This document shows positions 7,853-30,940 of a stretch of DNA of 64,000 nucleotides, piece after piece. How positions within the stretch are numbered: position 1 is the stretch's first letter; each line of letters opens with the position of its first letter. The translations under genes were made by a program, and so were the position numbers. A model generated the notes under the pieces. That model was not told the origin of the DNA, did no database searches, and saw nothing but the letters and a program-made list of their open reading frames with translations. This stretch comes from a virus, in IMG/VR virus record IMGVR_UViG_3300026533_000002, positions 1 through 64,000 of that record; one strand, given 5' to 3'.

Positions 7853-7854
7853 TA

Positions 7855-10054: not shown

Positions 10055-10858
10055 ATGGGTCAATTAACAGCAGCAGAGAAAAAACAACTGGAGAGGGATG
10101 GTTTCATCATTAAAAATGGAGAGTATATAGAAGGCTCAGCTTTTGTAGGTATGCCTATCAATGCTACAAATAAAGAAAATCTTCAACAAGTTCAATCTTT
10201 AAGTCCTCCCGCTCAGAAACTTTCTACATGGGAACAGGTTAAAGGTACGACCAATTCTAATGTAATGGATTCATGGGCAATTAGAAATGCTAAAATAGAA
10301 GACCCTTATGGCGCTGCTTATGGCTACATGGATAAAGATGTATCAGCTAAACCTGTAAGTAGTATATACCAAGGGTTCGATGGAGATGTTGGTGTTAAAT
10401 CACTAGTAAAAGGCTATGCTCCTAGCAATACTACTGACTCATTCTTAAGTACTGATGACAGTAACTGGGGTACTATAAAAGATAATTGGAATAATTCTGG
10501 AACTCTTAAGCAATTAGGTGACGGCTCAGTAGTTAAGCAAGGACTGGTATGGAACTCTAAAGCAGGGTTTGGTGATTACGATAATGTAGGGCAGTATAAC
10601 TCATTAAACAACTTAACAGGAGATAAAGCTTTATCTAATAAAGACTTTGCATTAGGTGTGCAAAATGAGAACCAATCCACAGCTAATACTATAGGCCTTG
10701 CACAAGCTGGGTTAGGGGCTGCCTCATTAGTAGGTAATATGTGGGTAGCTAATGAGAATAGAAAGATTAAAGAAGATGCTTTAGATTACCAGAAAGAACA
10801 AGATGCAGCTGCAACAGCTAAGACAGATAAGTTCCAACGTAGATTAGGTGGTCTATAA
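10055..10858 (+). CDS. ejection protein (N4 gp52-like position)
   Basis: Cys-free; C-terminal Gly/Ala-rich helix (IGLAQAGLGAASLVG) then charged coiled coil. Confidence 0.6.
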   Translation: MGQLTAAEKKQLERDGFIIKNGEYIEGSAFVGMPINATNKENLQQVQSLSPPAQKLSTWEQVKGTTNSNVMDSWAIRNAKIEDPYGAAYGYMDKDVSAKPVSSIYQGFDGDVGVKSLVKGYAPSNTTDSFLSTDDSNWGTIKDNWNNSGTLKQLGDGSVVKQGLVWNSKAGFGDYDNVGQYNSLNNLTGDKALSNKDFALGVQNENQSTANTIGLAQAGLGAASLVGNMWVANENRKIKEDALDYQKEQDAAATAKTDKFQRRLGGL

Positions 10859-13254: not shown

Positions 13255-16200
13255 ATGAACGTAGACTTCACTCAATATAATAAAGACTTACAAGCTAGCT
13301 TAGTAACGCCTACTCTAACTCAGAATAAAGCTAATAGGTTAGCAGAAAGAACTGCAAGTAAAGCTCGTAGGTTGAGTGTTTCTGATGTGAATACATTATC
13401 ACCTATGGAGCTACAAGAACAAGCTTCAAACCTGATGTTACAACAACTATATAGAGATGATAAAGGTTTATACAGATATGACTTTGACACTTTAGATAGT
13501 GAAGGTAACTGGGCTAATCCTAACAAAAAGATCCGCTTTAACGAGGTTAACCAGTATGGTCAGCCTAATATAGAAAACTACTACATAGACAATAATACTA
13601 ATAATACTGAAATGAAAGCTGGTATAGCTAGATCAGATGTTAATCCAAACTTTATTAACCCTACCACAGGTGTACCAATTACTCCTTTCGAAGCTAGATA
13701 TATGGATAAGAAAGATAAACCTTCACCATACTTAGGAGGAGGAAGTAAATATGATGGTACTCCTGGAAGTTTAGGAGTTACTCCTGGTGACGGTGCTTTA
13801 CTAGATATTACATTACCATACAATACTGCATCTACCTTAGAACAAATAAGATTACAAAATAAAGGTGAGTTAGAGAATAGAAGCTCTGGAATCACTAAAC
13901 AAGACTACTATGCTGCTAAGAAACTAAGAGGTCCTGGAGCTAGTGAGTATAGCCCATCTATAACTAATGAAGAACTAGGCATACAAGCATCTCCTATGTG
14001 GAATGTGGGCTACAAAGGTAAAGATGAAGAACTGCCTAAAGACACTTACATGCCTATGGAAGGTAAGTTTACTACTGAAACAGGCTCATCTAGTAGAGGA
14101 CTTACTGATAAAGAGTATGAGAAACTAAAAGAAGAGTTGAAAGAACCTAACGGTAGAGTAGAGAACTGGGTAGATGCATTACAATTTAGCTTCGGACGTA
14201 TGGGCGCAGAAGTTGGTGATGCAATAATAGATGCAGGTGTTAGAATAGGTAAGGAAGGTGCTAAAGCCTTAACTGACCTAACAGAAGATGATATTAATAC
14301 TGCACTAACTAAAGGTACTCTAGGTAAGACTAAGCTGTTTGATAAGAATATGAACTTTACTTATTTTGATAAGTATAAGACTGGTAAAGAGTATGGCTAT
14401 GACAATACTAGAGTAATAGAAGTTCAAGAAGATGTGTCCGCAGCTTGGAAGTCTGGTGACCCTATACAGATAGCAGGTGCAGTTTTATCTGCTATACCTA
14501 AAGCAGGGCCAGAGTTTGCATTAGAAAGTTTTGCAGAGATGGCTGGAGGTGTTGGAACTTTACCTAGTAAAGCTGGGTTAACTGCATTCTCGTTACTAGC
14601 TGCTAAATATGATAATGAAATGTTAGAAGATAGAGAAAAAATAACAGGTAGACCAGCTACTAATGCTGAAAGACTTGGTACTGGTATAGCAGCTATTGCT
14701 GTGGCAGGGCTTAATAGATTAGGAGCTGGAGAAGCTATAGGAGATACTAATGTAGTTAATACATTACTATCAACTGTTATTAAAGACGGTACTGAAGGAG
14801 CTGTTAAAAGTGCACTTAAGTCAGCAGTTAAGGTACTAGCTGTTACAGGTGGTAAAGGAACTTATGAAGGGTTAGAGGAAGTTGTCCAAGACTATACTCA
14901 ACAAATAGGTACTAAGTATGGAACTAAAAAAGAGAAAGACTTAACTAACTATAATAAAGTAGGTGAAGCATCTCTACAATCATTTACTGGTGGTATGGCT
15001 GCTGGTTCTACTATTTCAGCTGCTGGACAAGGATACTCAACTATAGCTGATGGTAAGAAACCTACTACACCTACTACTGGGGATACAGAAGTACAAGAAG
15101 TACCTGAACCTGAAGTAGCTAGGCAAGAACCTCCTAAGGTTAAGAGAACTGCTAAAGAATCGACAGAAGCGTTCGGTGCTGCGTATGCAGAGAAACTTAA
15201 AGGCTCAGCTCCTAAAATGGAGATACTACAATTAACTCAGAACCATTTAGACGAAGTTAGAGGTATGGAGGATAGTCCAGATAAAGTTCACTTCGAAAGT
15301 TTACTTAAAGGTGTAGTAGAACAAACTAAGTCTGATATTATAAAAGAACTAGATTCAGATAAGAGTAGTGATACTATAAATACTATCAACAAATCTTTCG
15401 GCTCAGACCCTGTAATGGAAGATACTATATTTAATGCTGAAGAAGCAGGAGATACTAAACTAGCTGATAAGATAATAGAAGCTAGTGATAAGCTAGGTAC
15501 TAAGGAAGCTAAGGAAGTTAAAGCTAAAGTAGAGTCTATTAAAGAAGAAGTAAAAATACTTAAGTCTATTAAGCAAGTAGAAGATGAAGTTACTAAAGGA
15601 AGTAAAGGTTATGGCACTTACTTCAAAGATGCTAAGAAAGGTATATACGACTTAATTACTGCTAATAAGAATAATGATGAGGAAGGGCAAGATAAAGCAT
15701 TTAAAACTGTTACTGATAACTTAAAGCGGTTAGATAGCTTTAAAAAGTCACAAACAGCTAAGTTAAGTAAGTTACAGGAAGCTGAGGCTGAAGGTATCCA
15801 GAAAATGGCTGATGAGGTAAGTATACCTTTAACTAGCAATAACTATAAAGAGATAGCATTAGCTCACATTAAAAAGTATTACCACGGTAAACTACCTTAT
15901 ACTAAGATACCTGTTAAGTATAGTAAGTACAGCGATCCATTTGATATGGATATTGGACATATAGCTTCTCATTATGCAAAAGGTAGTAATATTGGTCTGT
16001 ATAAAACTATGGGTGAAATAGAGAATTCTATCAATAGTATGGACAAATTAACAGGCAATATCAATGATAGAATAGCAGCTTTGAATGAAGCTCCTACAGA
16101 TACAAATAAGGTACCTACAAGCGACGAAGTAGTTTCAAAGGGTACATTACCTATACAAGAGGATTCTAAGCCTACAGGAGCTCCTACAGTCTCTGATGAA

Positions 16201-19200
16201 GTTATTACTGAAGATAGTGTAGATACTAAAGATACTACTGTTACTGGTAAAGTTAAAGGAGAATCAGTAGCTGCTAAAGCTATTAAAGAATCTAAAGTCC
16301 CTAACAATACTATAGTAGATAAGTTAAAACAAGTTGATCCTGAGTATAGTGAGTACACTCAAGAAGATGTAGATAATGGAACTATCACTGAAGAAGAACT
16401 TACTAGTCTACAAGAAGAGAAAGATGACGTACCTAACACATTAATAAGTTTAGTTGAAAGAAATAAGCTACCTATTAGAGTAGTAAGAGATACTATTAAA
16501 GAGCTAGAAGAAGATATCGGTGCCATACAAACACCAGATAAACCTAACTTAATTAATAAGTTACTTGAAACTTCTACAGTAAGTGAAAAAGAGTTAGCTA
16601 AAGCTTTAGAAAATGAGACTCCAGCAGCAGTAGATTACTCTGAAGAAGATGTTGCTGATGGGACAATAACAGAAGCTGACTTGAAGAGTCTGCACGGTGA
16701 AGATGGGGAGTTTGATGGTACACTAGTAAGACTAATTGATAATGGATTATTACCTGTAAAACTTGTTAAGCATACAATAAACATGTTAGAAAAAGAGAGT
16801 GCCTCTGACAATAAAGATAAGGCACCTACAAGCCCTAAAGGCAAAGTAGAGGATAAAGTACCAGCAACTCCTACTAAAACTCCTTCAGAGCAAAGTATAG
16901 CCCAGCTTACTAGTGATGAGCCAGAGATACCAACAGTACCAGACTATGTAACAGATGATGAGGTGATAGTTGATTATGGTGGGCACAGCATAGATGAAGA
17001 GATAGATTATACTGATACTACTGTATACGAAGAGGAAGCTACTACTATTAGAGATATGTTTAAAGATGTATCTACTGAAGGTAAGTCTAAAGCTGAAGCA
17101 TTCTTAATCAAATCTATACAAAATGATACTACTGGTAAAGTTACTGAAGCAGTAATAGCTGACATAGATGAGTTACAAGGTAGAATAGAATCTATTAACG
17201 ATGTCATAGCTAATTCTGAGGGTGGTTTAAGTAAAGACTTCGATAGAACAGCAGCCTTAAAGAATACTAGAAATAAGTTATCTAAAATAATAGAAGATGT
17301 TAATGCTAAGATTACTGATGCTAAAGAGCGTAAAGCACACGAAGCTACTCTAACAAAGAATATAGTTAACTTAGCTAAAGCTCAAGCTAAAATAGCTAAC
17401 GAGATTAAATCCCTTAAATTAGGTAAAGCAGGTCCATTGAAAGGAGCTAAAGCCTTAACTACTAAGATCAATGCTATGTATGATAAGACGAAGCCTAAAA
17501 TAAAAACTACTAAGCAGGCTAGTAAAGCTAAAGCTACTTTTAAAGAGCAACAAGCTGAGTCAGAAGATTCTATTAGAGGTACTAAAGCTATTAAAGAAAT
17601 ATTAAGTGATAGTATTAATAAAGGTAGGACTGCTAAGGCTGGGGAAGGTATAGGTAAGACATTAAGACAATCACTAGCTAAGGTTAAACAAGACTTAGTA
17701 GCTTCATTACCAGCTAATATCTATGAACCTGTAAAGAATAGTACTAGTAGAATATCAGCATCTAATATGAAAGTAGATGCTATTAGTGATACGTCAGCTG
17801 CTATAGCTTATGACGTAATGGATACATTAAAGACAGTATTAGCACCAGCTAACTCTATGGAAGAAGTTGAATTTACAGATAAGCAAGGCAATGTTAAGAA
17901 GTCTAAAGCTACTAATAGAGAATATGAACATTGGAGCAACTCTCCAGGTAGATCTCTATTATTTGATAGCAATGGAGATATACAGCCTAATGTTGCATTA
18001 GCTATTGGAGCATCTGTGTTTGAGTTAATAGGTTTAGGTAGTAGTGAGATTGGTATTAATGATAGTAACTCTATATCAAGAGCATTAACTATACAAGAAC
18101 ATGAAGTAACTCCAGCTATGAGAACATTACTAAAAGAAGGAAGCTTTAGAAAGTTAGTAGCTTTCAAACTAGGTAAGTCTATTGAGACATCTCTAGGTAT
18201 TAGAGTTAGAGATGATGCTTCTACTGTTGAATCTCAGAGATTTACTACAGACTTAGGTAATATGGCTTTACTATATGCTCAAGAAAGAGGTTATATAAAG
18301 CCTATGACTAAAGAGAATTCTATTAAAGTAGAAGAATATAATCAAATAGTAGGCAGTAGCTCAGATGTAGCTGAAGGATCTATTATACCTATGGTTACAC
18401 TTAGTCATCTTGACAATGCTAGAGAGAAAGCCAAGATGGTAGCTAACTCTAAAGCTGTGTTTGAAGACTTAGAAAAGGTACTTAAGATAGAGAGAACTGT
18501 TAAAGGTGTGTTATTCAAGAAACCTAAAGTAACTACTAAATCTAAGATGAGAAAGAACGAAGCTACTGTTGAGCCTGAAGAATCTAAAGATGTTATATCT
18601 AATGTACTAGAGCCAACTGAGTACGGTGTACATATGGAAGCTGTAAATAGATTAAAGAAGTTCACTAGAGAACAAGCATTAAAAGTAATGGGTTTTAAGA
18701 CTGCTTTAGAGATGAATGGTCAAGAGGCTTCTGAAGGTAAGAAGTATATACCTGGAATGGCTAAGGATGATAGAGAAGGACAAGTAGCTAAGAATGCTGC
18801 ACTGGTGGCTGAATATGATGATTTAATGGAACTTCATAATACTGTAGATACTAAGAAAGAAAACAATAAGATGTGGTTTGAATGGTTCTTTACTAAGAAT
18901 GGTAGATTTATATTAGACAGTATAGGTATTAATCCTCAGACTAATAAGAACTTACATAGATGGCTAGTAAGCCCTTTAAAACAACATAACAATCTTATTA
19001 TGATGAATAGTAAGAAAGATGTTACAGTATTTAAGTTAGCAGTAAATCAATCATTTGGCGTGTCTATAGATAAGTTATCTGAAGAGACTAATATGAAAGT
19101 AGCTGACCATATATTAGCTATGGATGCGGATGAGCTAGAGACTCTTATTAGTGAAAAAGCTAAAATAGATACTGGACTTAAAGAGTCTAACGGTAAAGCT

Positions 19201-21345
19201 ATAAAGTTAGAAGCAGAGCATTTAGGACATGCTATACAAGGTTTACTAGCTGTAGAAGCTTATAATAATAGAACTAAAGTAAATGGTGTAGAACAGTTTG
19301 AAACTGGTATAGCTGTAGAGTTTGATGCTGTTACTAGTGGTTTTATACTTAAGCTTATGCAAATGCCTATAATTAAAGATACAGAGATTTCACTAACAGA
19401 CTGGTTAGCTAAGGGTGCTATATTTATAAAAGATGCTTTTAGCTTTGGTAATAAGGAATCTATGGGTTCTAAAATTGAGAATAAAGTAATAACAGATACA
19501 TATGTAACATCTGCAAGAACACTGGAGAATAGGGATAAGTTTGAATCAGTAGAAATGGTTAAAGGAAAGCCTAAAGTAGAGGACTCATACGGACTATATG
19601 ACATTACTAATAGACTAAGCCCAGAAGTAACTAAAGACGGTGTAGTACAGTCATTTGGAAGGTTATTGTTAAAATACCCTACTATGATGTTCAATTACGG
19701 GTCAGCATTAGCTACTATTAAAAAATATGTTAGTGTTGAGCTTACTCAAGATATACCAAATATAGCTATTGATAGAGTTGAAGGTAAAGAGTTCAGAGAT
19801 AAGCTATTAGAAGTACAGAACATACCTAACACAGAAGAAGCACACAATAAACTAATTAAAGAGTTTAAAAATACTAGTTTCACGTACATAACATTAAATA
19901 TTAATGGTAAAAAAGTTAAACTACAAGAACATTTAGAAAGTCTAATGGTAGACCAGTATGGTACACAAGTAGCTGATGTATTTGAGTTAAACTTTGGAGA
20001 TATGATTAGAGCTAATGAGAAAACTAGAAATGCTTTTAGAGCTATGACTAGATTATTTATCATGGACTATGATAGACAATTAAGTTACATTAACAAGCCT
20101 ACTAAAGGTGACGAGGCTGATGTACTTAAAAGCCTTATGAACAAGTATCCTGCTCTAAGAGCTCCTTTAAGTAACACAGAAGGCTTTGATGACTATATCT
20201 CTATTATGAGTAAAGGTAAGGCTACAGCTGCTAATGCTTCTGTATCTACAGCTTTGAATACTAATATAGAGCAGAAGAGTGGGACTACTAGTATTACTAC
20301 TAAAGCATTACTTACAAGATTTGAAGAAGCTATTAGTTCTGGTGTAGTTCTACCTATTCACTATATCGATGGGACTATAATGGCTCTAACACTGAAGCTA
20401 GGAGAGCTAGGAGTTCATGATGCTATTGTACTAGGAATTCTAGGTGCTATGGATACTGTTAAAAGATACAATAAGAATGTATATGAAGTATCTAAGAATT
20501 ATTCAGTTGTTGAAGAAACACTCAAGTCACTAGAAAGAGCTATAGAAGCTAGTTCAGAAGCTGATATACTAGATGTAGATATTAACAATGCTGAAGAGAC
20601 TGGCGGTAGAGTACTTAAAGATAGTAAAGGTAATGCACTTACAATAGGCGAGATACAGGCTGAGTTTAATAAATTAGCAGATGAAGTAAGAGCTGAGAGA
20701 GAAGAGTTATTTAGTAAAGATATGAGAATAGATCATATGATTGCTACTAAAGACTCAGCTTATGAAGTTATAGGCTCTAAGACTAGGAAAGCTAAAGCAG
20801 AGCCTGAAGCTAAAGCTAGTGATATTAAAGAAGCATTAGTTAAGACATTTGCAGATAGAGGTATAGAAGCTAATGTTAGAAATGTAAGTGAATTACTATT
20901 TAAGGAGATAACTAAAGTAGTTATATCTGGTAAAGAGAAGACTACTATAGAAGATAACTTAGAAGCTATTAAAGGTGTTATGAGTAAGACTCAACTTAAA
21001 GCATACAACATAGCTGAAGCAGATGGAGCAGGTATAGCTTATATAGCTTCACAGTTTGCTACTGTAGTTAAGTTTAGAAAAGAAGTAGGTAAGATAACTG
21101 AAGAAGACACACCAGCTAACTTTGCTAGTAGATTTCTTAGTACAGCTAAGAAGATAGTTAAGTTTATTAAAGGTGATGATACTGAGTTAAGTAGAGCATT
21201 ACTTAATGTTATTGGTAGAGGTATAAGAAATAAAGATGTTAAAAGTCATAGAGTATTAATAGGCAAAGTGTTAGGTGATAAGTATAGTGATACACATTTA
21301 GCTATAATTAAAGCACTAAATGAGTTTGATAAGGAATGTAACTAA
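13255..21345 (+). CDS. virion-encapsidated RNA polymerase (N4 gp50-like; N-terminal and polymerase domains)
   Basis: T7-like RNAP motifs of N4 type: TKNGR…NPQTNKNLHR, motif A EFDAVTSG, motif B RLLLKYPTMMFNYGS, IHYIDG, motif C VHDA; 2696 aa; the only Cys is the penultimate residue. Confidence 0.92.
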   Translation: MNVDFTQYNKDLQASLVTPTLTQNKANRLAERTASKARRLSVSDVNTLSPMELQEQASNLMLQQLYRDDKGLYRYDFDTLDSEGNWANPNKKIRFNEVNQYGQPNIENYYIDNNTNNTEMKAGIARSDVNPNFINPTTGVPITPFEARYMDKKDKPSPYLGGGSKYDGTPGSLGVTPGDGALLDITLPYNTASTLEQIRLQNKGELENRSSGITKQDYYAAKKLRGPGASEYSPSITNEELGIQASPMWNVGYKGKDEELPKDTYMPMEGKFTTETGSSSRGLTDKEYEKLKEELKEPNGRVENWVDALQFSFGRMGAEVGDAIIDAGVRIGKEGAKALTDLTEDDINTALTKGTLGKTKLFDKNMNFTYFDKYKTGKEYGYDNTRVIEVQEDVSAAWKSGDPIQIAGAVLSAIPKAGPEFALESFAEMAGGVGTLPSKAGLTAFSLLAAKYDNEMLEDREKITGRPATNAERLGTGIAAIAVAGLNRLGAGEAIGDTNVVNTLLSTVIKDGTEGAVKSALKSAVKVLAVTGGKGTYEGLEEVVQDYTQQIGTKYGTKKEKDLTNYNKVGEASLQSFTGGMAAGSTISAAGQGYSTIADGKKPTTPTTGDTEVQEVPEPEVARQEPPKVKRTAKESTEAFGAAYAEKLKGSAPKMEILQLTQNHLDEVRGMEDSPDKVHFESLLKGVVEQTKSDIIKELDSDKSSDTINTINKSFGSDPVMEDTIFNAEEAGDTKLADKIIEASDKLGTKEAKEVKAKVESIKEEVKILKSIKQVEDEVTKGSKGYGTYFKDAKKGIYDLITANKNNDEEGQDKAFKTVTDNLKRLDSFKKSQTAKLSKLQEAEAEGIQKMADEVSIPLTSNNYKEIALAHIKKYYHGKLPYTKIPVKYSKYSDPFDMDIGHIASHYAKGSNIGLYKTMGEIENSINSMDKLTGNINDRIAALNEAPTDTNKVPTSDEVVSKGTLPIQEDSKPTGAPTVSDEVITEDSVDTKDTTVTGKVKGESVAAKAIKESKVPNNTIVDKLKQVDPEYSEYTQEDVDNGTITEEELTSLQEEKDDVPNTLISLVERNKLPIRVVRDTIKELEEDIGAIQTPDKPNLINKLLETSTVSEKELAKALENETPAAVDYSEEDVADGTITEADLKSLHGEDGEFDGTLVRLIDNGLLPVKLVKHTINMLEKESASDNKDKAPTSPKGKVEDKVPATPTKTPSEQSIAQLTSDEPEIPTVPDYVTDDEVIVDYGGHSIDEEIDYTDTTVYEEEATTIRDMFKDVSTEGKSKAEAFLIKSIQNDTTGKVTEAVIADIDELQGRIESINDVIANSEGGLSKDFDRTAALKNTRNKLSKIIEDVNAKITDAKERKAHEATLTKNIVNLAKAQAKIANEIKSLKLGKAGPLKGAKALTTKINAMYDKTKPKIKTTKQASKAKATFKEQQAESEDSIRGTKAIKEILSDSINKGRTAKAGEGIGKTLRQSLAKVKQDLVASLPANIYEPVKNSTSRISASNMKVDAISDTSAAIAYDVMDTLKTVLAPANSMEEVEFTDKQGNVKKSKATNREYEHWSNSPGRSLLFDSNGDIQPNVALAIGASVFELIGLGSSEIGINDSNSISRALTIQEHEVTPAMRTLLKEGSFRKLVAFKLGKSIETSLGIRVRDDASTVESQRFTTDLGNMALLYAQERGYIKPMTKENSIKVEEYNQIVGSSSDVAEGSIIPMVTLSHLDNAREKAKMVANSKAVFEDLEKVLKIERTVKGVLFKKPKVTTKSKMRKNEATVEPEESKDVISNVLEPTEYGVHMEAVNRLKKFTREQALKVMGFKTALEMNGQEASEGKKYIPGMAKDDREGQVAKNAALVAEYDDLMELHNTVDTKKENNKMWFEWFFTKNGRFILDSIGINPQTNKNLHRWLVSPLKQHNNLIMMNSKKDVTVFKLAVNQSFGVSIDKLSEETNMKVADHILAMDADELETLISEKAKIDTGLKESNGKAIKLEAEHLGHAIQGLLAVEAYNNRTKVNGVEQFETGIAVEFDAVTSGFILKLMQMPIIKDTEISLTDWLAKGAIFIKDAFSFGNKESMGSKIENKVITDTYVTSARTLENRDKFESVEMVKGKPKVEDSYGLYDITNRLSPEVTKDGVVQSFGRLLLKYPTMMFNYGSALATIKKYVSVELTQDIPNIAIDRVEGKEFRDKLLEVQNIPNTEEAHNKLIKEFKNTSFTYITLNINGKKVKLQEHLESLMVDQYGTQVADVFELNFGDMIRANEKTRNAFRAMTRLFIMDYDRQLSYINKPTKGDEADVLKSLMNKYPALRAPLSNTEGFDDYISIMSKGKATAANASVSTALNTNIEQKSGTTSITTKALLTRFEEAISSGVVLPIHYIDGTIMALTLKLGELGVHDAIVLGILGAMDTVKRYNKNVYEVSKNYSVVEETLKSLERAIEASSEADILDVDINNAEETGGRVLKDSKGNALTIGEIQAEFNKLADEVRAEREELFSKDMRIDHMIATKDSAYEVIGSKTRKAKAEPEAKASDIKEALVKTFADRGIEANVRNVSELLFKEITKVVISGKEKTTIEDNLEAIKGVMSKTQLKAYNIAEADGAGIAYIASQFATVVKFRKEVGKITEEDTPANFASRFLSTAKKIVKFIKGDDTELSRALLNVIGRGIRNKDVKSHRVLIGKVLGDKYSDTHLAIIKALNEFDKECN

Positions 21346-24300
21346 TGGGTTGTAAAGCTAATGATGCTAGAAAGAAAGTATGGGATATCTTAGAAGAAAG
21401 CAATGTACCAATGAATTTAAAGAAGCTAATAGCTAATGCAGTTGAGAAGGATTACAAAGAGAAAGCTGTTAGAGCTACTGAAGCATCAAAGAGAGAAGCT
21501 GAAGCTGATATAGTAAAAGCTATAGAAGAAGTAGATGACTCTAAGATTGTAAAAGAGAAGACTAAAGGTTCGTTATGGATAATGAGAAGTAAGTTTGACC
21601 CTGACTTTGGTAATCCTTTCCTATCTAAGCCTTCTAAAGATCCTAAAGCTAGTGACTTTGTATTACCTAAAGCTACAAACAAAGACTTAACATTAGCATT
21701 TTATAACTGGCTAGAGAATTCAGATAATGTACCTGCAGGTGTTAATGCTAAGACTAGAGAAGCACTAAATACTAAGAGAGATACTATAATCAATAGCATT
21801 GATAAAGTACTGAATGCTGAGTCACTAGTTTACAATAGTACAGGAGCTAATGAAAGTATAAACCCAGCTAAAGTGTTGATACTTATAAGCAATGTTGTTG
21901 GTGAGAAGTCTGGTAGTAAGTCTAAAGAAGGTAGCCAGTCTGAAAAGTATACTTCACACTTTAATAAGGGTAAGGCTACTGTAAAACCCAAGAATGGGCC
22001 AGATATGTTAAAAGCTAAACTAAAGGCAGAAGAGTCTAACTCTTATATAGGTTATGGTAAAGATGGTTCTAGTACTAAGCTATATGAGGACCAATTAAGA
22101 GAGCAAGGTATACCTATAAATAAAGGTAATTACTCTAAAGGTGATGTAGTATTTGCAAGTATAAATGGAACACCTACTAAGAAAGATTTAGACAGTACAT
22201 ATAACGAGGTAGTAAAAGCACTTGAATCTGGAGCTAAAGTTATACTAGATAGTAAAGAGTATATAGAAGATAGTTCATACAATAAAGGTGAGGCTCAACT
22301 AGCTAAGTTACTACAAGATAATGGGTACATTAGAGCAGATTCTAAGACTAAGGTACAAATTAGTCATAAGGCTAAGAGTGGTGGGTACATAGTCAAGAAT
22401 TATAGCGTAGGTATATGGAGTAAGAAACAAAGTAGCACTGGTAATAAGGACACTGCTAAGGACATTGTAAAGTTTACAGACATGTATACTACACTAGATG
22501 GTAAAGGGTATATTGATTCACGTATATCAAGTATTGAAAGTAGTTCAGACAATGAGCCTAGGTTAGTCTCAAGATATTATGATATCCTAAACAAAATAAA
22601 GTCTCCTTTACTAGTGCCTACAAAGGAATTACTTACAGCTATAGCTGATAGACCTGTTGATTTCTATATAGATATAAGTAATAGCCTGTCTATAGGCGAC
22701 GGAAATTTCATGAAAAAATATAAGTCAGATATAGAAAAAGTAGTGCCTGTAAAGGATTTTAAGAAATATGTAAACTACAGAGCAGGTGGTATTGCTGATA
22801 TAGGTTTCAATATTCCTGATAATATTGAAGCTTCCGCAGTTTTAGCTACTAGTAGCAAGTATACAATTAACGACATTGAAGAGATACTAGTAGATAGAAC
22901 TAAAACATTGGAGGACAACTTTAATATATGGAAGGGCATAGAAGAAGTTCTTAATAAGTCTTATAGTAGATGGAAAGACTCTGGAGGTACTGCTAAACAA
23001 GTAGACACTAATACTAAAGATATAAGTAAGTTCATAAAGTCACTTCCTTTGGATGATAATGAATTATATGAAATATACGATAAAGAAGATACATTTGGTA
23101 TGGATACCTATACTCTAAAAAAAGCTATAATACATCTTATTATATATGGCGGGTTAGAAATTGATAGCCCTATTGATGTAAGTCTCGAGGAAATGGCTAA
23201 GTATAAAGGTACTGACTTAGGAGAACAGATAAAGGACTACATGAAAAGTAATCTAAAGGGCCATGGAGGACACAGCCTGCCTAAAGATGATACTAATAAC
23301 TTAACTATTTATATAAGTAAATTATATGGTTTCGACTTACAGAAAGTAAATAGACTAGCTGTTCATTACGAAGAAGACTACTCAGAAATAACATTAAATG
23401 ATGTAAAAGATAAAACTTTTAAAGAAGTTGTAGAGGATGCCAACCTAGACTATACAGTACATGAAATTGGGCAGAACTTGCAGCCTGACTCTGGTGTAGC
23501 AGCAGTACTTGTGAAGAGCGGTACTAAGGATATAGAAGATGTTAGACTAGCTAGTAATATTTCAGAGATATCTGAAAGCATTAAGGACGGTTACAATAAA
23601 ATAGTAAGTACTGAGTTTGGAACATCAACTCAAAAACCTAAAAGTATTAAAACTACTAGTAACAGAGAACTTACACTAGAGTCAATCAAAGGTAAGTCAG
23701 TACAAGGTATAGTTGAAGAGGAAGGTTTTGAGTACTTCACTCAAACTGAGGCAGACAGAAGGTTGCCGTCAAGTACAGTTATTACCCTAGCTAATTCAGA
23801 TGGAGAACATATATCAAGTTTTACACCTACACTTGAAGAATTTAAAAACCTGATAAGTAGAGGGTATAGTACAATTAAAAGCACTAATGATGTGCACGAA
23901 ATACCGTTCCAACACTCATCAGACTTACCTTCTATAAAAAGTAACAGTAAAGAATTTGAGAGTATAAGATCTAAGTTAGCTAAGATGTACCCTGAAATTA
24001 AAGTAGAAGCATTAGATAAGATAGTAGACAGTGAAGGTATAGAAGTACTAGGTAAAGCATTAGATAGGATTGTGCAATACAATACTAATAAAGCTAAACT
24101 AGATACACTACCTCATGAGTATGCACATATTTATATAGACTTATTAGAAAGAACTAAGTTTGTTAAAGCCTTAATAGCTAAGACTATGAAGACACATAAC
24201 TTAAGCAGATACGATGCTAAAGAGTTTATTGTAACTCAAATGGGTGAGAATTACATAAAACAAATGAATGGTGAGAAGCTGAGTAAACCTATAGATAAGA

Positions 24301-26996
24301 GTCTACTTACTAGGTTATGGAAAGCTATAAAAGAGTTCTTTAATAAGGATGCATCTGAAGTAACTAAAGACATAGAAGAAGTATCTAAGAGATTTTATAA
24401 AGGAGAGAGAAGTACTACTAAAAGTAAAGTCAAAGCTAAATCAGCTACTAACACTGGAGATAGTAAAGGACCTACTACTAGAGTAGAGCTAAACTCTATG
24501 AGAGAATTAGATGCTTACATAGACTCAATAGCTAACAATAGAAGTGAAGCTACTAGAGCTAAACAGAAGTTAAAGTTCTTATCTAGTATAGTTCCAATAG
24601 ATAAGTTAGCAGTAACAGTACAAGATGTTCTATTATATGATGGTAAGAATGTAGATGGATTATACCACCATGGAGATGGATTAATAGAGTTAAGTAGAGA
24701 AGGTAACTTAGTAAATACTCTTGTACATGAGATAGTTCATTCACTTACTGAAAGAGCTTTACAGAAATCAGGCTTATCAGATACAGTTATGAAGTTAGAG
24801 AAGTTAAGAATAGAAGCTCATACTAAATCATATACTGAACTAGGAAATAAACCTAGTTTAATTTATGGGTTATCAGCTAATCAGACATTAGAAGAGCTAA
24901 ACAATGATACTGATGAGACTTTAATTAAATCAAGAGTAGCAGAGTTTGTAAGTGAATTAGTAGCTAACGATGAGTTACAAGACTTACTTACTAAGGTACT
25001 TAGAGAAAACCATAAGATACCTAGAAAAGTAGGTTCATTAGATGTAGTAGTTAAGTTATGGGGTAGATTAGTTAACCATTTAACTGAGGAAGATATAGAA
25101 AGTGCTTTAAGTGACGGGCTCACTCTAGTGAGAGCATTGATAACTGAAGGAGTTACTACTGATGGTTCTACTAAGAAAGCTCTAATAGTAAGAGCTAAAG
25201 AGAGAAGTCTAAATTTTGATGACATAAAAGACAAGCTAGCTAAGCTTTATCCTGAAATAAAAGTAGAAGCCTTGAATAAGGTAGTTAGTAGCGAAGGTGT
25301 AGAAGTACTGAGCAGAATTATAGACGGAATTATACAATACAGTAATGGTAAGGCTAAGTTAGATACACTACCTATCGAGTATGCTAACATATACATAAAG
25401 CTATTCAGAGATGCACCTATTGTGCAAGAAGCTGTTAAACAATGGGGTTCAGAAGAGAAGTTAGTTGAAGCTATAGGAGAGCAAGTAGTTAAGCAAGAAG
25501 GTAAGGTGTATGGTTGGTGGTCTAAGTTCAGTGAATGGACTAGTAATTTATTTGAAAAACTAAGTACTAGTAAAAAAGAAGAACTAAGTAAAGTACTGAC
25601 TGATGCGTTTCTACTTAACCAGAATTTGCATGCTATATCTTCTAGGAAAAGAACATATAAACAGTACAGGGATCTGTTAGCTAATGTGCAGCTGAGATAT
25701 AAGAAGGCAGGTATAGAAGTAACTAGTAAGGAATTTGCTGAGTACGCCTCTACTGTATTCCCAGACTCAGAGCTACAGGACCTGTACAAGCACGATACTA
25801 AGCTGCAAGAGAGTAAATTAGGCTTAGAAGGCACTAAAGAGTTTGCCAGCATTGTAGAAACTCTTCAAGGGAACGTTACACCTTTCACTTCACTTGCTGA
25901 AGATTTTGGAGATGAAATAGCTGCTGACTACAGCTTAAGTAAGAGAGAGTATATACAGAGTATAGTGGATGGTACTTTAGAGATAGACGAGGATACGGAG
26001 GACTGGTTAGAAGGTCTTGAGAAGGCAGATATATTAGAAAAACTAACAGGGAATAAAGATGCAGAATTGCCGACTTATAGTGAATCTATACCTGCTTTTA
26101 GTATACGTACTGGTAAACCTTTACAGATGAATGCTTCAGAAGTAAGGCTAAATAGTGGGAGTATGGAAACTTACAATGACGAGAGTATAGCTATACTAGT
26201 GAAGAAAACATCATCGAAAGGTAGGTATAACAAGTTAATTATGGACAAAAACTATGTAAACAGCAAGCTTAGTGATAAACTAGTAAGAGACCTTATAGTT
26301 GTAACTTCAATGACCAGTGATGATTTTGATGCCACGTACGACATACTACTAGATACTATGGTACCAACTATTCAAAAACTGCTTATGGCAGACAAGATTG
26401 ACAATGACACAACACTTGTCGATGTTTTTGATGAAATTATCAATAACCAAAACACTTACCCTGATACATTAGATTCTTTAGTGATGCTAGACTCAAAATT
26501 ATTAGATAGAATTAAAGCTAAGAAATCAAGTATTACAGAAGACTACAACTACTTCGTTGAAAGTATGGTACAGGAAAGTAGAAAGTCAATATACAGAGAA
26601 GGGTTTAAACGTGATAAAATAGGCTCACAGACAGGATTTAACTTTAGAGGGGAAGGTTTTTACTTTGGAGAGTTAGGGCAGGCAGCATGGGGAGACTCTA
26701 CATACACATATTTTGTAAAGTTAAATGGAAAGCTTGACGATTACAAGTTCGGGTATATACCTGACCTTAATACAGGTTACAGTGACTTTGACACTGCTGA
26801 GGTAAAAGAGGAGAAGACTAGAGCTTACTTAGACAATTATACTGACAGGTCTAAAGAAGCTTACGTAGAAGACCCTAGCCAAGTCCACATATTCGGCTCA
26901 GCAAATGATGTAGAAATGTTAAAGAAGTGGCTTGATAACAGTTATGCTAAAATGTCTATAAAAGATAAGGCTAAAGAAATAGCTGAAAGCTGTTAA
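21345..26996 (+). CDS. polyvalent virion cargo protein (DUF4326-like, zincin HExxH domains, ART-PolyVal-like C-terminus)
   Basis: FGNPF…AFYNWL segment; LDTLPHEYAH and LVHEIVH zincin motifs; C-terminal GEGFYFG…EAYVEDPSQVHIFGS; Cys only at residues 3 and 1883. Confidence 0.7.
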   Translation: MGCKANDARKKVWDILEESNVPMNLKKLIANAVEKDYKEKAVRATEASKREAEADIVKAIEEVDDSKIVKEKTKGSLWIMRSKFDPDFGNPFLSKPSKDPKASDFVLPKATNKDLTLAFYNWLENSDNVPAGVNAKTREALNTKRDTIINSIDKVLNAESLVYNSTGANESINPAKVLILISNVVGEKSGSKSKEGSQSEKYTSHFNKGKATVKPKNGPDMLKAKLKAEESNSYIGYGKDGSSTKLYEDQLREQGIPINKGNYSKGDVVFASINGTPTKKDLDSTYNEVVKALESGAKVILDSKEYIEDSSYNKGEAQLAKLLQDNGYIRADSKTKVQISHKAKSGGYIVKNYSVGIWSKKQSSTGNKDTAKDIVKFTDMYTTLDGKGYIDSRISSIESSSDNEPRLVSRYYDILNKIKSPLLVPTKELLTAIADRPVDFYIDISNSLSIGDGNFMKKYKSDIEKVVPVKDFKKYVNYRAGGIADIGFNIPDNIEASAVLATSSKYTINDIEEILVDRTKTLEDNFNIWKGIEEVLNKSYSRWKDSGGTAKQVDTNTKDISKFIKSLPLDDNELYEIYDKEDTFGMDTYTLKKAIIHLIIYGGLEIDSPIDVSLEEMAKYKGTDLGEQIKDYMKSNLKGHGGHSLPKDDTNNLTIYISKLYGFDLQKVNRLAVHYEEDYSEITLNDVKDKTFKEVVEDANLDYTVHEIGQNLQPDSGVAAVLVKSGTKDIEDVRLASNISEISESIKDGYNKIVSTEFGTSTQKPKSIKTTSNRELTLESIKGKSVQGIVEEEGFEYFTQTEADRRLPSSTVITLANSDGEHISSFTPTLEEFKNLISRGYSTIKSTNDVHEIPFQHSSDLPSIKSNSKEFESIRSKLAKMYPEIKVEALDKIVDSEGIEVLGKALDRIVQYNTNKAKLDTLPHEYAHIYIDLLERTKFVKALIAKTMKTHNLSRYDAKEFIVTQMGENYIKQMNGEKLSKPIDKSLLTRLWKAIKEFFNKDASEVTKDIEEVSKRFYKGERSTTKSKVKAKSATNTGDSKGPTTRVELNSMRELDAYIDSIANNRSEATRAKQKLKFLSSIVPIDKLAVTVQDVLLYDGKNVDGLYHHGDGLIELSREGNLVNTLVHEIVHSLTERALQKSGLSDTVMKLEKLRIEAHTKSYTELGNKPSLIYGLSANQTLEELNNDTDETLIKSRVAEFVSELVANDELQDLLTKVLRENHKIPRKVGSLDVVVKLWGRLVNHLTEEDIESALSDGLTLVRALITEGVTTDGSTKKALIVRAKERSLNFDDIKDKLAKLYPEIKVEALNKVVSSEGVEVLSRIIDGIIQYSNGKAKLDTLPIEYANIYIKLFRDAPIVQEAVKQWGSEEKLVEAIGEQVVKQEGKVYGWWSKFSEWTSNLFEKLSTSKKEELSKVLTDAFLLNQNLHAISSRKRTYKQYRDLLANVQLRYKKAGIEVTSKEFAEYASTVFPDSELQDLYKHDTKLQESKLGLEGTKEFASIVETLQGNVTPFTSLAEDFGDEIAADYSLSKREYIQSIVDGTLEIDEDTEDWLEGLEKADILEKLTGNKDAELPTYSESIPAFSIRTGKPLQMNASEVRLNSGSMETYNDESIAILVKKTSSKGRYNKLIMDKNYVNSKLSDKLVRDLIVVTSMTSDDFDATYDILLDTMVPTIQKLLMADKIDNDTTLVDVFDEIINNQNTYPDTLDSLVMLDSKLLDRIKAKKSSITEDYNYFVESMVQESRKSIYREGFKRDKIGSQTGFNFRGEGFYFGELGQAAWGDSTYTYFVKLNGKLDDYKFGYIPDLNTGYSDFDTAEVKEEKTRAYLDNYTDRSKEAYVEDPSQVHIFGSANDVEMLKKWLDNSYAKMSIKDKAKEIAESC
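23973..25400 (+). repeat. internal duplication (~56 aa; copies at 23973 and 25233, offset 1260 nt)
   Basis: KLAKMYPEIKVEALDKIVDSEGIEVL…KAKLDTLPHEYAHIY vs KLAKLYPEIKVEALNKVVSSEGVEVL…KAKLDTLPIEYANIY. Confidence 0.9.
26941..26953 (+). promoter_or_regulatory. putative internal extended -10 promoter GTTATGCTAAAAT
   Basis: 12/13 identical to the 10023 promoter; about 55 nt upstream of ATG 27008. Confidence 0.4.
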
Positions 26997-27007
26997 GGAT
27001 AGTTTAG

Positions 27008-30000
27008 ATGAAATGTGGTACACTAGAAAGTAAGATTCAGGAAGGTAGTAAAGAGGTTGGCGCAACGCAATTAATTATGGCAAAAGCTGTATCGGCTTAT
27101 AAAGACAATGTCTCGTCTGTAGGCTTGTCTTCAATAGATATTGATATGAAGAATATTAATGGATATGACACTAAACAAGTAGAGGCTATACAGAGCAAGA
27201 TAAGCACACTAGAAGGTACAGAAGTCAATATAATGACTAATGGTAAGGCTGGAGGTAAAAGTACTGTGAAGGCTCTTAAAATGAGTCCTAATATGTCTAT
27301 AGAATTAACTACTAAAGACGGTAGTAAACACGTACTTAACTTAGAAGGAACTAATGAGCAAGGCTCTATTAAAGTACCTGCTATTACTAAGTTACTTAAA
27401 CCATTTAAAGAAGCTAGAGATAAAGCCTGGGAAGACTCTATAAAGAATATAGGTAGTTATGCTTCAGACATAGATACAGAACTAGGTGATGCTTCTAGTG
27501 AAGAAATAGTAGATACATTGATGAATGATCCTGCTAGTGTTAAAAAGATGATGAAAGACCTTAGAGAAGCTGACGAGAATACTATTAGTGACTTCCATTA
27601 TAAAGTCTTAGAGAAAGTAGTTGATATGTATATAGGTACTGTAGGTAAAGCTATACCGGGTATGTTAAATGTTTATATGCTAGATAAAGCTGAGAAGAAT
27701 GGGGGAGAGTTTGTACTTAATAAAGGTATTAAGTTACAGATGGGTAAGAAGAATAAACTAGCTAAGAGTATGGTAGAGATATATGTACATGAACTTATAC
27801 ATGCTAGTACAGTATATGCTAGACATAGTACAGATGCTAAGGTTAGAAGAGCTGTGCAAGAGTTAGAGAAGCTTAGACTTAAGATACTGCCTAGATTAAA
27901 GCCTGGGGACTTAATACCTAATAGAATAGGAGAACCTACAGAGTTAGAACTTAACTACGGTGAAGCTGCTATAAACTACATGTCTAGTAAAGATACTGGA
28001 TTAGAAGAGTTTATAACTTACTCACTAACTAATGAGCCTATGATTAATGCTATTAATAATATTAGTAAAGACATTATTAAAGAGGAAGAGCTAGAAGATA
28101 AGACACTATGGGATAAGATAGTTGAATATGCACTTACTATGTTTGAAGGTGTAAAGAGAATTGCAGGTCAACAAGTACTAAGCCATAAAGAGGAAACAGC
28201 TATACAGCAGTTAGTATTAACTATGGTAGCTAATAATAACAAAGCAGTAGTTAGGAGAAAAGAAGGGCTATCTGGTAAGATGGAAGACTTCTTCGTTAAT
28301 ACTAATGATAAGTGGTCACAGATAATTAATAAATGGGATGCTAAAGCAGTAGAGAAGATGAGAAAGAAACATCCTACATTCAATCCTACAGGTTCTACTT
28401 ATAGTAAGGTGAAGTCGTTAGCAAGTAATGCTGCTAGGCTAGCTCTGGACCCAGAGACTAGAGTAGGTTTTGAGACTACACTTAGTGCTATTGGTTTAAA
28501 GGAAGAAGGAGTAGTCCAGACTGTAATACACCAAATGAGGGAGAAAGACTCACTCACTAGAACAATAGAGAACATGCTACTAAGGGCAGGCAATATAGAC
28601 CGTAAGAAAGAAAATATGAGACATATGTATCATAGCTTAGTGTTAGAAGGGTTTACGGAGAAACCAGCAGTACAACATCAAGAAGCAATGACTACTATAG
28701 GGTTAGATTTAGACCTTAGTAGCATATACAGTAAGCTTGGCAGCAGTAAGATTGCTAAACTACTCACTAATACTACTGAGCTATCTAAGGAGATAGAAGA
28801 TACTAAGAATGACATAAAAGAACTAGATAGTAGTAACTATAACTACTACACAGCTCAAGCTAAAGGTCTAGGGAACTTTATGGTTACGCATGTGCCAAAG
28901 GCAGTTTACCTTTATAATGCTAAAAGTATCGCAAGTAAACTTAATATGGATCAAATATTTGACCCAGATGAAGAGCTTATAACTGCTATAGACAAGTTAG
29001 CCACTCTTGAAGCGTTGCAGGTAGCTGAACAAGGAGATAAAGACGCATTAGCAGATTTAATAGCTAAAGATAGTAAAGGGGTGGATAACTTTATGGCATT
29101 CCATTCAATGTATAAAGATGTAGCACTTAGAGAAGCGTTTGAGGGCAAGCAAGAGAAAATAGTAAAAGGGCAGATAAAAGAGATTTATGACGGAGACATA
29201 TCGACTAAGATAATTAGAGTAGAGGACTTGAAAGAGTTTGAAGCTAAAGGTTATGAGAAAGTAGAAGATGTGAAAGTGCATAAAAAAGATAAGTCATTAT
29301 CTAAACTAGTGTTAGTAATTAATAGAGATAACATAACTAAGACTTACGATAAAGCTTTGATAAGACTAAAAGATGAGCATGTTCTAGGTACTTCCCTAGT
29401 TGAGACTAAGAAAATACAAGACAATGAATACGGCTCATCTGAGCTACTAGCAAGAGCTAGGAATGATATGGTACAAATAACAAATAGTATGTATAGACAA
29501 CTTAAGATGATGGAGAAAGGTACATATGACCCATCAAAAGACGAATACGATTTGTTAGCAGTACACAATGAGAAGGGAGAAGTAGAGTCTTATAGCTATA
29601 TAATGCCTAAAGCACAGAAAAAGACTTTAATGGATCAAGAAGTAAAGGCTCCAGTAGTTTTAGCTGGTATGTTTACAGATGTATATGACCTTAAGAATTC
29701 TAAAGAGTTTAACAGGGAAGTATTTAACTTAGCTAAGAAAGATGCTATTGAGAATGGAGTTAATCCTGAAGCTAGAGTTATCAAGAGTGATGCCGGTAAG
29801 AATTACATTATGCTAGAAGAGAATTCTAATAATAAAATCATAAGAGATATATGGAACATACTGCCTAAAGATTTTGCTAAACTCATTAAAGAAGAAGGCT
29901 ACAACGGTAAACTTCCACTTAGACGTGATGCATTACTAAACTATACAGGCAGTAGGAAACTAAGTGTAGCTGATGTATTGCCTAAAAGCACTAGTACATA

Positions 30001-30940
30001 TACTAAGCATTTAGTTAGACATATAGGGTCTCTATGGCAAGAATTTGTTAGCATAGCTGCTGGCAATATTATTATTAAAACACCTGCTGTATTTAAAGAG
30101 AATGTTAAGAGTAACTTTAACCTTAGTGTTAAGTTTGGCATATCTCCTATGGAAGTGTTTAGATTGCAAATGGATGGTGTTAAGTACCTAAAGGAATACC
30201 TAGACACTTCAAAGAAGTTAGAGAAACTTAAAGCACGTAAAGCAGCTAAGGTATTAGATAACTTACCTACTACTAATACTGATATACAGATTAAAGTGTT
30301 AGAAAGTATACTAACTAATAGTCCTGTAGCTAACATGATGGACAGGGGTATGTATAGCGGTATAATAGAAGACTCAGCATTCTCTGAAGCTAGAAGCCAA
30401 GGTAAGATTAGTAAAACAGCAGATAAGTTTCTAAATTACCTGCATCCATATGTAAGAACAGGAGTAGAGTATACATTCCTTAGTAGTAAAACTAAGTTAT
30501 ACAAACTAATGTCTACGATGATTCAGTTTAGTGACTTTGTTGCTAGGTATGCTCTAATACAAGCATTATTAAGACAAGGTCCTCCTCCTTCACTAAAAGA
30601 CTACACTGCAAAACAGTGGGAGGAGTATGTAATAAATTTAGCAAATGATGCAATGATTGTATACCCGTCACAACTTAGTCCTCTACATCAATATGCAGAG
30701 GACATGGGTTTTATTAAGTTCTCTAAGTACTTCATAAGAATACAGAATGTAATTAGACAAGGAGCTAGGAAACATCCAGTAAACTTCTTAGCAGCTATAC
30801 TAGGTCAAGAGCTACTAGGAGATGTAAGTGATGTAACTGACCAGAACCTTTTAACTAAAGACTATGGAAACTTATTCTATAGCCCTTACACTATTGCGAA
30901 AGAAGCTTCAGCAATGAAAGGATTAGAGCTAGTTACTTAA
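27008..30940 (+). CDS. N4 vRNAP C-terminal-domain homolog (zincin HELIH plus encapsidation region) as a separate gene
   Basis: EIYVHELIHAST…GLEEFITYSLTN, IDKLATLEAL, LWQEFVSIAAGNIIIK, IQFSDFVARY, YAEDMGFIKFSKYFIRIQ resemble the C-terminal third of N4-like gp50; Cys only at residue 3. Confidence 0.8.
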   Translation: MKCGTLESKIQEGSKEVGATQLIMAKAVSAYKDNVSSVGLSSIDIDMKNINGYDTKQVEAIQSKISTLEGTEVNIMTNGKAGGKSTVKALKMSPNMSIELTTKDGSKHVLNLEGTNEQGSIKVPAITKLLKPFKEARDKAWEDSIKNIGSYASDIDTELGDASSEEIVDTLMNDPASVKKMMKDLREADENTISDFHYKVLEKVVDMYIGTVGKAIPGMLNVYMLDKAEKNGGEFVLNKGIKLQMGKKNKLAKSMVEIYVHELIHASTVYARHSTDAKVRRAVQELEKLRLKILPRLKPGDLIPNRIGEPTELELNYGEAAINYMSSKDTGLEEFITYSLTNEPMINAINNISKDIIKEEELEDKTLWDKIVEYALTMFEGVKRIAGQQVLSHKEETAIQQLVLTMVANNNKAVVRRKEGLSGKMEDFFVNTNDKWSQIINKWDAKAVEKMRKKHPTFNPTGSTYSKVKSLASNAARLALDPETRVGFETTLSAIGLKEEGVVQTVIHQMREKDSLTRTIENMLLRAGNIDRKKENMRHMYHSLVLEGFTEKPAVQHQEAMTTIGLDLDLSSIYSKLGSSKIAKLLTNTTELSKEIEDTKNDIKELDSSNYNYYTAQAKGLGNFMVTHVPKAVYLYNAKSIASKLNMDQIFDPDEELITAIDKLATLEALQVAEQGDKDALADLIAKDSKGVDNFMAFHSMYKDVALREAFEGKQEKIVKGQIKEIYDGDISTKIIRVEDLKEFEAKGYEKVEDVKVHKKDKSLSKLVLVINRDNITKTYDKALIRLKDEHVLGTSLVETKKIQDNEYGSSELLARARNDMVQITNSMYRQLKMMEKGTYDPSKDEYDLLAVHNEKGEVESYSYIMPKAQKKTLMDQEVKAPVVLAGMFTDVYDLKNSKEFNREVFNLAKKDAIENGVNPEARVIKSDAGKNYIMLEENSNNKIIRDIWNILPKDFAKLIKEEGYNGKLPLRRDALLNYTGSRKLSVADVLPKSTSTYTKHLVRHIGSLWQEFVSIAAGNIIIKTPAVFKENVKSNFNLSVKFGISPMEVFRLQMDGVKYLKEYLDTSKKLEKLKARKAAKVLDNLPTTNTDIQIKVLESILTNSPVANMMDRGMYSGIIEDSAFSEARSQGKISKTADKFLNYLHPYVRTGVEYTFLSSKTKLYKLMSTMIQFSDFVARYALIQALLRQGPPPSLKDYTAKQWEEYVINLANDAMIVYPSQLSPLHQYAEDMGFIKFSKYFIRIQNVIRQGARKHPVNFLAAILGQELLGDVSDVTDQNLLTKDYGNLFYSPYTIAKEASAMKGLELVT

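Follow-up and report, generated by a model that had tools for sequence, protein, structure and literature searches.

The window analysed here, the first 64,000 nucleotides (64 kb) of virus record IMGVR_UViG_3300026533_000002 (118,976 bp, rated complete), carries three consecutive giant open reading frames (ORFs), ORF1, ORF2 and ORF3, which appear to encode the virion RNA polymerase (vRNAP) of a distant N4-like podophage together with an inserted module. The three predicted proteins contain four cysteines (Cys) in 5889 residues, and every one of them lies at an end that faces a neighbouring protein of the trio. Since the same pattern is conserved at the split sites of related polymerases, and since it coincides with a disulfide in the virion of phage A4, we propose, with a probability of roughly three in four, that head-to-tail disulfides allow the ejection, as a single thread, of proteins that were made separately.

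Three giant ORFs with cysteines at their facing ends

The ORFs, their terminal Cys codons and the signals around the two junctions are as follows.

13255..21345, + strand: ORF1, 2696 amino acids (aa), predicted N-domain and T7-like polymerase domain of an N4-like vRNAP (phrog_2206)
21331..21335, + strand: AAGGA ribosome-binding site of ORF2, within the K-E codons before the ORF1 Cys
21337..21339, + strand: TGT codon of ORF1 Cys2695, the penultimate residue (tail ..KECN)
21343-21345, + strand: stop codon TAA of ORF1
21345..26996, + strand: ORF2, 1883 aa, predicted inserted module, with Cys at residues 3 and 1883 only
21351..21353, + strand: TGT codon of ORF2 Cys3
26991..26993, + strand: TGT codon of ORF2 Cys1883, the last residue
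26994-26996, + strand: stop codon of ORF2
26995..26999, + strand: AAGGA ribosome-binding site of ORF3
27008..30940, + strand: ORF3, 1310 aa, predicted C-terminal domain (C-domain) of the vRNAP (phrog_2206)
27014..27016, + strand: TGT codon of ORF3 Cys3

The interiors of the three proteins are free of Cys, and so are the two outer ends, the N-terminus of ORF1 and the C-terminus of ORF3. At the frequency found in the other 116 ORFs of the record (0.84%), about 49 Cys would be expected in 5889 residues. Only one of these 116 ORFs has a Cys in residues 2-6 and eight have one in the last 7; among 751 other ORFs of related loci the corresponding numbers are 44 and 68. The four-Cys end pattern is far beyond chance. 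Each of the three ORFs lies in a different reading frame, and the distance from AAGGA to ATG is 8-9 nt for both ORF2 and ORF3. A preliminary description of the window, made from the letters alone, had given these ORFs, their Cys, the Cys-free outer ends and two Cys-free ORFs upstream, and had credited each downstream ORF with an AAGGA of its own; a recount agreed throughout, and both sites were located at the positions listed. It had also named sequencing errors at the stops at 21343 and 26994 as a possibility, though an unlikely one. Over 20900-27400 the window shows 0 differences from a 37.6-kb contig of run X1, possibly the source of the record, and contigs of run X2, a second sample, span both junction bins with no difference there among the matches listed.

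Two sets of profile matches place the outer proteins of the trio. ORF1 residues 736-2565 match positions 643-2041 of phrog_2206 (E 2e-61) and ORF3 residues 252-1297 match positions 2341-3390 (E 1.9e-117); on a profile of our own, built from 24 one-piece polymerases and 3235 positions long, ORF1 corresponds to positions 206-2005 and ORF3 to 2074-3233. Both profiles match the earlier assignment, by which ORF1 is predicted to be the N-domain and polymerase, and ORF3 the C-domain, of an N4-like vRNAP. Judged by homology, the window holds the ejection-protein operon of a distant N4-like podophage in which the polymerase is translated as three internally Cys-free proteins; genes for the portal, the major head protein and other virion proteins lie upstream of the trio. 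ORF3 matched 282 phage records, all at <60% identity and at <25% among the matches listed, megablast of 20000-28500 against named phages gave no match, and the closest relatives carry the labels P0003 and P0158.

Like N4 gp50 and DEV gp71 (Schitoviridae), the proteins of the trio have homologous polymerase and C-domains, no internal Cys and a zincin-like motif, and the polymerase follows small Cys-free ejection genes. Unlike the single polypeptides of N4 and DEV (~3400-3500 aa, ~3500 aa for the N4 type), which have zero Cys and no 1883-aa module, the window has three ORFs totalling 5889 aa with four terminal Cys, at an identity of <25%. The zincin-like motif lies early in ORF3:

27788..27802, + strand: HExxH of ORF3 (H261, E262, H265), zincin-like motif of the C-domain

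It is invariant in 6 of 6 sequences; among 74, H265 is invariant and H261 and E262 are each kept in at least 90%. The motif probably matches one that has been reported, as zinc-binding or peptidase, for DEV gp71 and polyvalent proteins, and no Pfam peptidase model reaches its cut-off in ORF3.

End cysteines among relatives

Scans of viral contigs with ORF2 or ORF3 as single proteins gave no match, and an alignment-based scan was required to find related loci. It yielded 77 loci in viral contigs; a second scan, of metagenome contigs, yielded 80, of which 14 were duplicates. A junction was scored when a Cys lay within the last eight residues of the upstream protein and another within residues 2-7 of the downstream one. 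There are 33 such Cys/Cys junctions in 27 loci, the window included, some of these loci being closely related to each other. By contrast, 47 boundaries between neighbouring genes of these operons were scored, and none has a Cys on either side. Most of the loci (22 of the 27) have one junction only, at which the polymerase piece is paired directly with the C-domain piece. Beyond the Cys the proteins extend by 0-7 residues upstream and 2-5 downstream, and the stop-to-start spacing ranges from -10 to +40 nt, a multiple of three in 8 of 33 cases. The consensus reads M-[S/A]-C-[K/S/N]-[I/L/V] downstream and I-[E/K]-[G/E]-C-K-stop upstream.

The same pattern was found piece by piece. The sample of 36 relatives of the polymerase part of ORF1 includes 34 in the split-size range (2218-2751 aa). 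Each of the 34 carries a single Cys, located 0-4 residues from the C-terminus; one, 90% identical to ORF1, shares its tail. The remaining two are one-piece proteins, one without Cys and one with two internal Cys. For ORF3, split size was found in 129 of the best 149 matching cluster representatives. An initial M with Cys at residue 3 (n=86), 4 (n=26) or 5 (n=8) occurs in 120 of the 129, and this early Cys is the sole Cys in 117 of the 120; seven of the nine full-size proteins among the same 149 are Cys-free. Split-size proteins make up well over 100 separate 50%-identity clusters. The one-piece polymerases of the loci (3100-4500 aa) are Cys-free except L007, L021, L067, L104-L109 and L113, which have 1-3 scattered Cys, and L063, considered below. 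The preliminary description had named split homologues with scattered Cys, or with none at their ends, as the result that would overturn its idea. The comparison did not refute it: a terminal Cys pair stands at nearly every true split and is absent from one-piece forms.

On our profile the splits fall at two sites, N-domain/polymerase at ~710-1110 and polymerase/C-domain at ~1950-2070, each with its own Cys pair. N4 gp50 is described as three folded units on two flexible linkers that unfold through a 30-45 Å tail (PMC13434306, PMC11445570), and the two split sites correspond to these two linkers as set out in the first of these sources. In L022, L025 and L029 the Cys partners are separated by an unrelated gene, which has internal Cys. 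Changes of the split state were estimated with quick FastTree trees of the C-domain. In the first set of loci all 15 polymerase/C-domain splits fall within one 20-row clade, which also contains one-piece forms, and the Cys-free unsplit L003 is sister to the split L004 and L005. Over both sets the polymerase/C-domain split state requires at least 5 changes among 107 rows, and the N-domain/polymerase split at least 2 among 62 rows.

Two loci illustrate how a chain of this kind may be lengthened. L081 is a three-part relative of the two-part L002, with an 877-aa module (737-3370) between its polymerase and C-domain pieces. The first codons of the module are a DNA-level copy of the start of the C-domain gene, the module's last 38 residues share 84% identity with the tail of the L002 polymerase piece, and the L081 polymerase piece has a new tail ending ..EGCK. 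L097 likewise has an extra module of 901 aa (6929-9634) in comparison with L099, the polymerase pieces of the two being 92% identical, and its chain has three junctions. Both modules are predicted superfamily 1 (SF1) helicases of the RecD/Pif1-like type (AAA_30, E 6.6e-18 for L081 and 1.4e-20 for L097, plus UvrD_C_2), 30% identical to each other and with Cys at each end only, which suggests that a helicase is delivered in the virion. Since ORF2 occupies the same place and has the same end pattern as these modules, the chain evidently takes up modules, with a new Cys pair at each new junction, and ORF2 is best described as a putative extra module spliced into the polymerase/C-domain junction. 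The earlier suggestion that the system accepts any cargo is thereby narrowed: Cys-ended modules do insert, but three natural types have been seen, each without internal Cys.

ORF2 matches no part of the one-piece polymerase profile or of phrog_2206. No full-length relative was found among 5.8 billion proteins at word-level sensitivity, named phages gave one short match only, and the sole family match, SprT-like, scored 22 bits, below its cut-off of 25.6. The nearest Atlas clusters are polyvalent proteins, with a score of 0.77 that serves as a lead only. A 170-residue domain, residues 851-1022, matches the tail of the upstream polymerase piece of L006 (2233-2401, E 3.7e-45), and ORF2 and the L081 helicase module have a stretch of ~80 residues in common. 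Two HExxH motifs are present in the middle of the protein:

24114..24128, + strand: first HExxH of ORF2, residues 924-928
24726..24740, + strand: second HExxH of ORF2, residues 1128-1132

Contigs of runs X2 and X3 match the ends of ORF2 and skip or replace its interior (joints 21474>22421, 21874>24434 and 22434>24434), so that the interior may vary between strains; with short flanks and matches taken at a low likeness threshold, this is weak evidence. Positions 25240-26975 have no X2 or X3 coverage, and nothing is concluded from this gap. A predicted complex of ORF2 residues 1704-1883 with ORF3 residues 1-240 scored 0.03, which is not evidence either way.

Precedents in other phages

In the one case that has been solved, cyanopodophage A4 (Anabaena phage A-4L), the same end-Cys signature corresponds to an actual disulfide. 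Cryo-electron microscopy of the virion showed gp27 docked into gp26 by its C-terminal helix, with a Cys1715-Cys5 disulfide between the two; the paper presents the bond as a detail of the structure and states no general rule (PMC12002296). In the A4 record Cys1715 is the sole Cys of gp27 (1717 aa) and Cys5 the sole Cys of gp26 (1114 aa). As in the window, the Cys of the upstream ejection protein is near its C-terminus, that of the downstream protein is in the first 6 residues, and there is none inside. Unlike the window, the A4 chain is without an RNA polymerase and has one junction, not two, in a 41.7-kb genome. Comparison of gp26 and gp27 with the window ORFs gave no hmmsearch match at E up to 10 and no phmmer match at E up to 1.

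Oxidation in the virions of a cytoplasm-assembled phage does occur, as indicated by the inter-subunit disulfides described for crAss001 virions in gp57, tail hub and ring proteins (PMC10172136). The giant cargo proteins of crAss-like phages, which the preliminary description had put forward for comparison, have the same end-Cys logic in 8 of the 9 genomes examined, crAss002 fitting in part only. In Cellulophaga phage phi14:2 g067 (1797 aa) ends in its sole Cys, the polymerase g066 (2180 aa) has Cys at 3 and 2179 only, and the sole Cys of g065 (1421 aa) is at 3; with exactly four Cys in 5398 aa, this trio is an exact copy of the Cys pattern of the window. In crAss001, DAC15, a Kolpuevirus, cr111_1, cr116_1, cr55_1 and cr4_1 the same end logic is accompanied by some internal Cys. 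The trio proteins are described as virion components, the last with a zincin-like domain (bioRxiv 10.1101/2020.03.07.982082, PMC10172136). The likeness of these trios (phi14:2 g067/g066/g065, crAss001 gp47/gp50/gp49) to the window lies in three giant proteins with end-Cys logic. They differ from it in a polymerase of the two-barrel type, in the internal Cys of the gut members and in genes that may be on opposite strands, and no sequence similarity to the window ORFs was found. In crAss001 the first partner gene is on the opposite strand to the other two, and an effect of coupled stop and start sites is therefore ruled out there.

Published accounts have approached split polymerases and Cys in ejected proteins differently. 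Ejected phage proteins are held to be Cys-free (PMC3821669, PMC11445570), and separated polymerase ORFs have been treated as gene-calling mistakes or read-through, and joined (PMC10654107). For Alteromonas phage AD45, re-sequencing by polymerase chain reaction (PCR) confirmed the split, and two polypeptides were seen on gels whose conditions the paper does not state, leaving the two bands uninformative on a disulfide; the authors took Cys as a sign of non-injection and made no remark on its positions (PMC3821669). In the sequence record of AD45 the sole Cys of the 2481-aa piece lies 2 residues before the end, and that of the 1409-aa piece is residue 4. Phages vB_AmaP_AD45-P1 to P4 belong to the same clade as ORF3 of the window and, unlike the window, have the polymerase in two pieces, not three. 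Some of the cases in the phylogeny section of PMC11445570 may show the end-Cys pattern seen here, in a second ejection protein.

The trio also resembles the polyvalent proteins (PMC5512222), giant injected multidomain proteins described as carrying variable effector domains around an N4-type polymerase and a zincin-like peptidase. The polyvalent model, in which neither the word cysteine nor the word disulfide appears, is of one polypeptide thought to be cut by its own peptidase (PMC5512222), whereas the proteins of the trio are made from separate genes and would be joined after translation.

Ejection as one thread and alternative readings

In the proposed mechanism the pieces would dock non-covalently and then oxidise, either in the head or after lysis. 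Inside the virion the penultimate Cys of ORF1 would bond Cys3 of ORF2, and Cys1883 of ORF2 would bond Cys3 of ORF3. With side stubs of 0-2 residues the product would be an almost unbranched thread of 5889 residues that mimics the single polypeptide of N4. A split protein held only by folded contacts would fall apart on unfolding, so non-covalent contacts would be insufficient; covalent links would preserve the order of the pieces as these unfold and cross the narrow channel of the tail. The thread would leave as one, after which cytoplasmic reductants may separate the pieces, this being the least supported step. AB toxins provide a parallel: a single interchain disulfide holds their two chains together until translocation is over, and its reduction in the cytoplasm of the target frees the active chain. 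The analogy is one of mechanism only; the proteins and the delivery machine are unrelated, and the toxin chains arise by cleavage of one precursor. The terminal disulfides put forward in the preliminary description thus gain from the bond with the same signature in A4 (PMC12002296) and from the conservation of the Cys, short of proof for the window phage, for which we infer the bond, the pairing order, the timing of oxidation, the co-ejection and the reductive release. That description would also have the chain packaged through ORF3.

A number of observations weigh against this reading. An alternative order, with an ORF1-ORF3 bond and ORF2 self-closed or dimerised, fits the sequence too. A family search found no thioredoxin or glutaredoxin encoded in the virus record, and the runs with this DNA bear the label hydrothermal vent metagenome, which points to a place where conditions can be reducing. 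The gut crAss-like proteins carry internal Cys as well as terminal ones. Nine of the 129 C-domain pieces are without Cys in residues 2-6 (two have Cys7 after a probable wrong start, one has Cys15, one has internal Cys only and five have none). The E, K and G residues before the C-terminal Cys overlap the AAGGA of the next gene and are maybe nucleotide-driven; weight was therefore put on the Cys alone. In two loci Cys is found on one side only: upstream in L074, beside a broken region (at 4300-6100 the polymerase region lies in several frames after a piece with near-terminal Cys, with no clear partner start), and downstream in L112, where the partner is outside the locus. The one-piece polymerase of L063 (2018-12277) ends in ..SCDC.

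Eight breaks without Cys also count on this side, in L013, L024, L038, L049, L054 (first), L064, L074 (second) and L125. All eight look like frameshift errors or broken genes, and any real split among them would be an exception to the rule. Six of the eight fall inside conserved domains with nearly contiguous profile coordinates, and one of these six, in L038, also contains an N. Near-identical siblings of L049 are one-piece. At the L013 break (5380-5830) the N-domain and polymerase ORFs overlap; it looks like an assembly frameshift or a recoding site and was counted as frameshift-type, a true Cys-free split having been dropped there because the downstream frame is open right across the break. 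As a separate observation, L063 is joined by other one-piece polymerases with odd Cys (L104, L105, L107, L109, P0127 and P0140), and one one-piece lineage has a CxxxxC pair ~250 residues before the C-terminus.

If the alternative order applied, ORF1 would be bonded directly to ORF3, and ORF2, closed through Cys3-Cys1883 or present as a homodimer, would travel separately. The sequence fixes no partners, and the direct pairing of polymerase piece with C-domain piece in 22 of the 27 loci favours such an order. However, the modules of L081 and L097 inherit the tail that pairs with the C-domain piece in L002 and L099, and the polymerase piece gains a new tail, which fits in-line insertion. A resemblance of the ORF2 tail to that of the L013 polymerase piece, over ~10 residues, points weakly in the same direction, and a closed loop would cross the tail channel doubled up; we consider this order unlikely. 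It is also quite unlikely, in our estimate, that the facing Cys share a metal ion, or that each binds a third component of the virion such as the portal or the capsid interior. A pair of thiols is able to share one metal, the residues ahead of the C-terminal Cys are often acidic, and a zincin HExxH lies 260 residues into ORF3. Against this, a metal site of only two Cys is a poor one, the HExxH is also present in one-piece polymerases that have no Cys, and the three junctions of the L097 chain cannot all use one site. There is moreover one Cys per side at every junction and none at the outer ends, and A4 provides a direct disulfide (PMC12002296).

That the split is a sequencing error, or is undone by read-through or frameshifting so that one polypeptide results and the Cys are incidental, is very improbable. 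The separated polymerase ORFs joined in PMC10654107 and the eight Cys-free breaks that look like frameshift errors are the precedents for such a view. Against it stand the three frames, each ORF's own AAGGA and ATG, a stop-to-start gap divisible by three at no more than 8 of 33 junctions, the split-size proteins in well over 100 50%-identity clusters, and AD45, in which the split was PCR-confirmed with two polypeptides reported (PMC3821669); a fusion by read-through or frameshifting was dropped on the frames, the separate AAGGA and ATG and the AD45 evidence. We find it scarcely credible that the Cys codons are a by-product of nucleotide constraints at coupled stop and start sites, with no role in the protein. 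AAGGA does overlap the codons just before the C-terminal Cys, but Cys occurs at 0 of 47 equally tight neighbouring boundaries, the spacing varies from -10 to +40 nt, a further gene may lie between the partners, or the two may be encoded on opposite strands, and the downstream Cys comes after the start codon.

Other chemistry for the terminal Cys was discarded. A split intein has an N-intein of ~100 aa at the upstream end and a C-intein of ~35 aa before the first downstream Cys; here only two residues precede the downstream Cys, and a family search of ORF1-3 found neither intein nor Hint. Ligation at an N-terminal Cys was rejected because the downstream Cys is at residue 3-6 and never terminal. 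A 'cysteine switch' acting on the zincin site was also rejected, one-piece forms having the motif without Cys and the N-domain/polymerase junctions being far away from it.

Somewhat short of an even chance, and offered tentatively, is the wider idea that end-Cys links are a general, modular way in which N4-, crAss- and A4-like podophages build threads from Cys-free modules, the enzymes being freed by cytoplasmic reduction. What was already known is one junction disulfide in one phage, A4; the breadth, the polymerase chains and the module insertion appear to be new. The general rule, its use in polymerase chains and crAss-like trios, and module insertion were not found in a search of the full-text literature, which had most subscription journals and supplements outside its range. 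If the idea is correct, modules with both end motifs could be spliced in, those seen being polymerase, helicase and zincin-like domains and ORF2, and the rule that ejected proteins lack Cys would gain a second half, namely that Cys is allowed only at the joint. The pattern in the loci, one Cys at each facing end of a split giant protein and none elsewhere, merges the earlier views of split polymerases, as annotation error, as read-through or as non-injected proteins, into one testable rule. It would explain how a protein of ~6000 residues can be divided into genes and its modules swapped without losing single-file ejection, and it gives annotators a simple aid for telling true splits from frameshift errors.

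Upstream of ORF1 lie the two Cys-free ORFs mentioned above, which matched no PHROG or Pfam family and are candidates for ejection proteins by their position only.

10055..10858, + strand: 267-aa ORF, Cys-free, directly upstream; candidate small ejection protein
10858..13212, + strand: 784-aa ORF, Cys-free, directly 5′ of ORF1; candidate ejection protein

Further upstream, a 504-aa ORF of the virion module (8394-9908), with a weak MafB19-like deaminase match below the cut-off, has a CxxC motif with Cys at residues 271 and 274.

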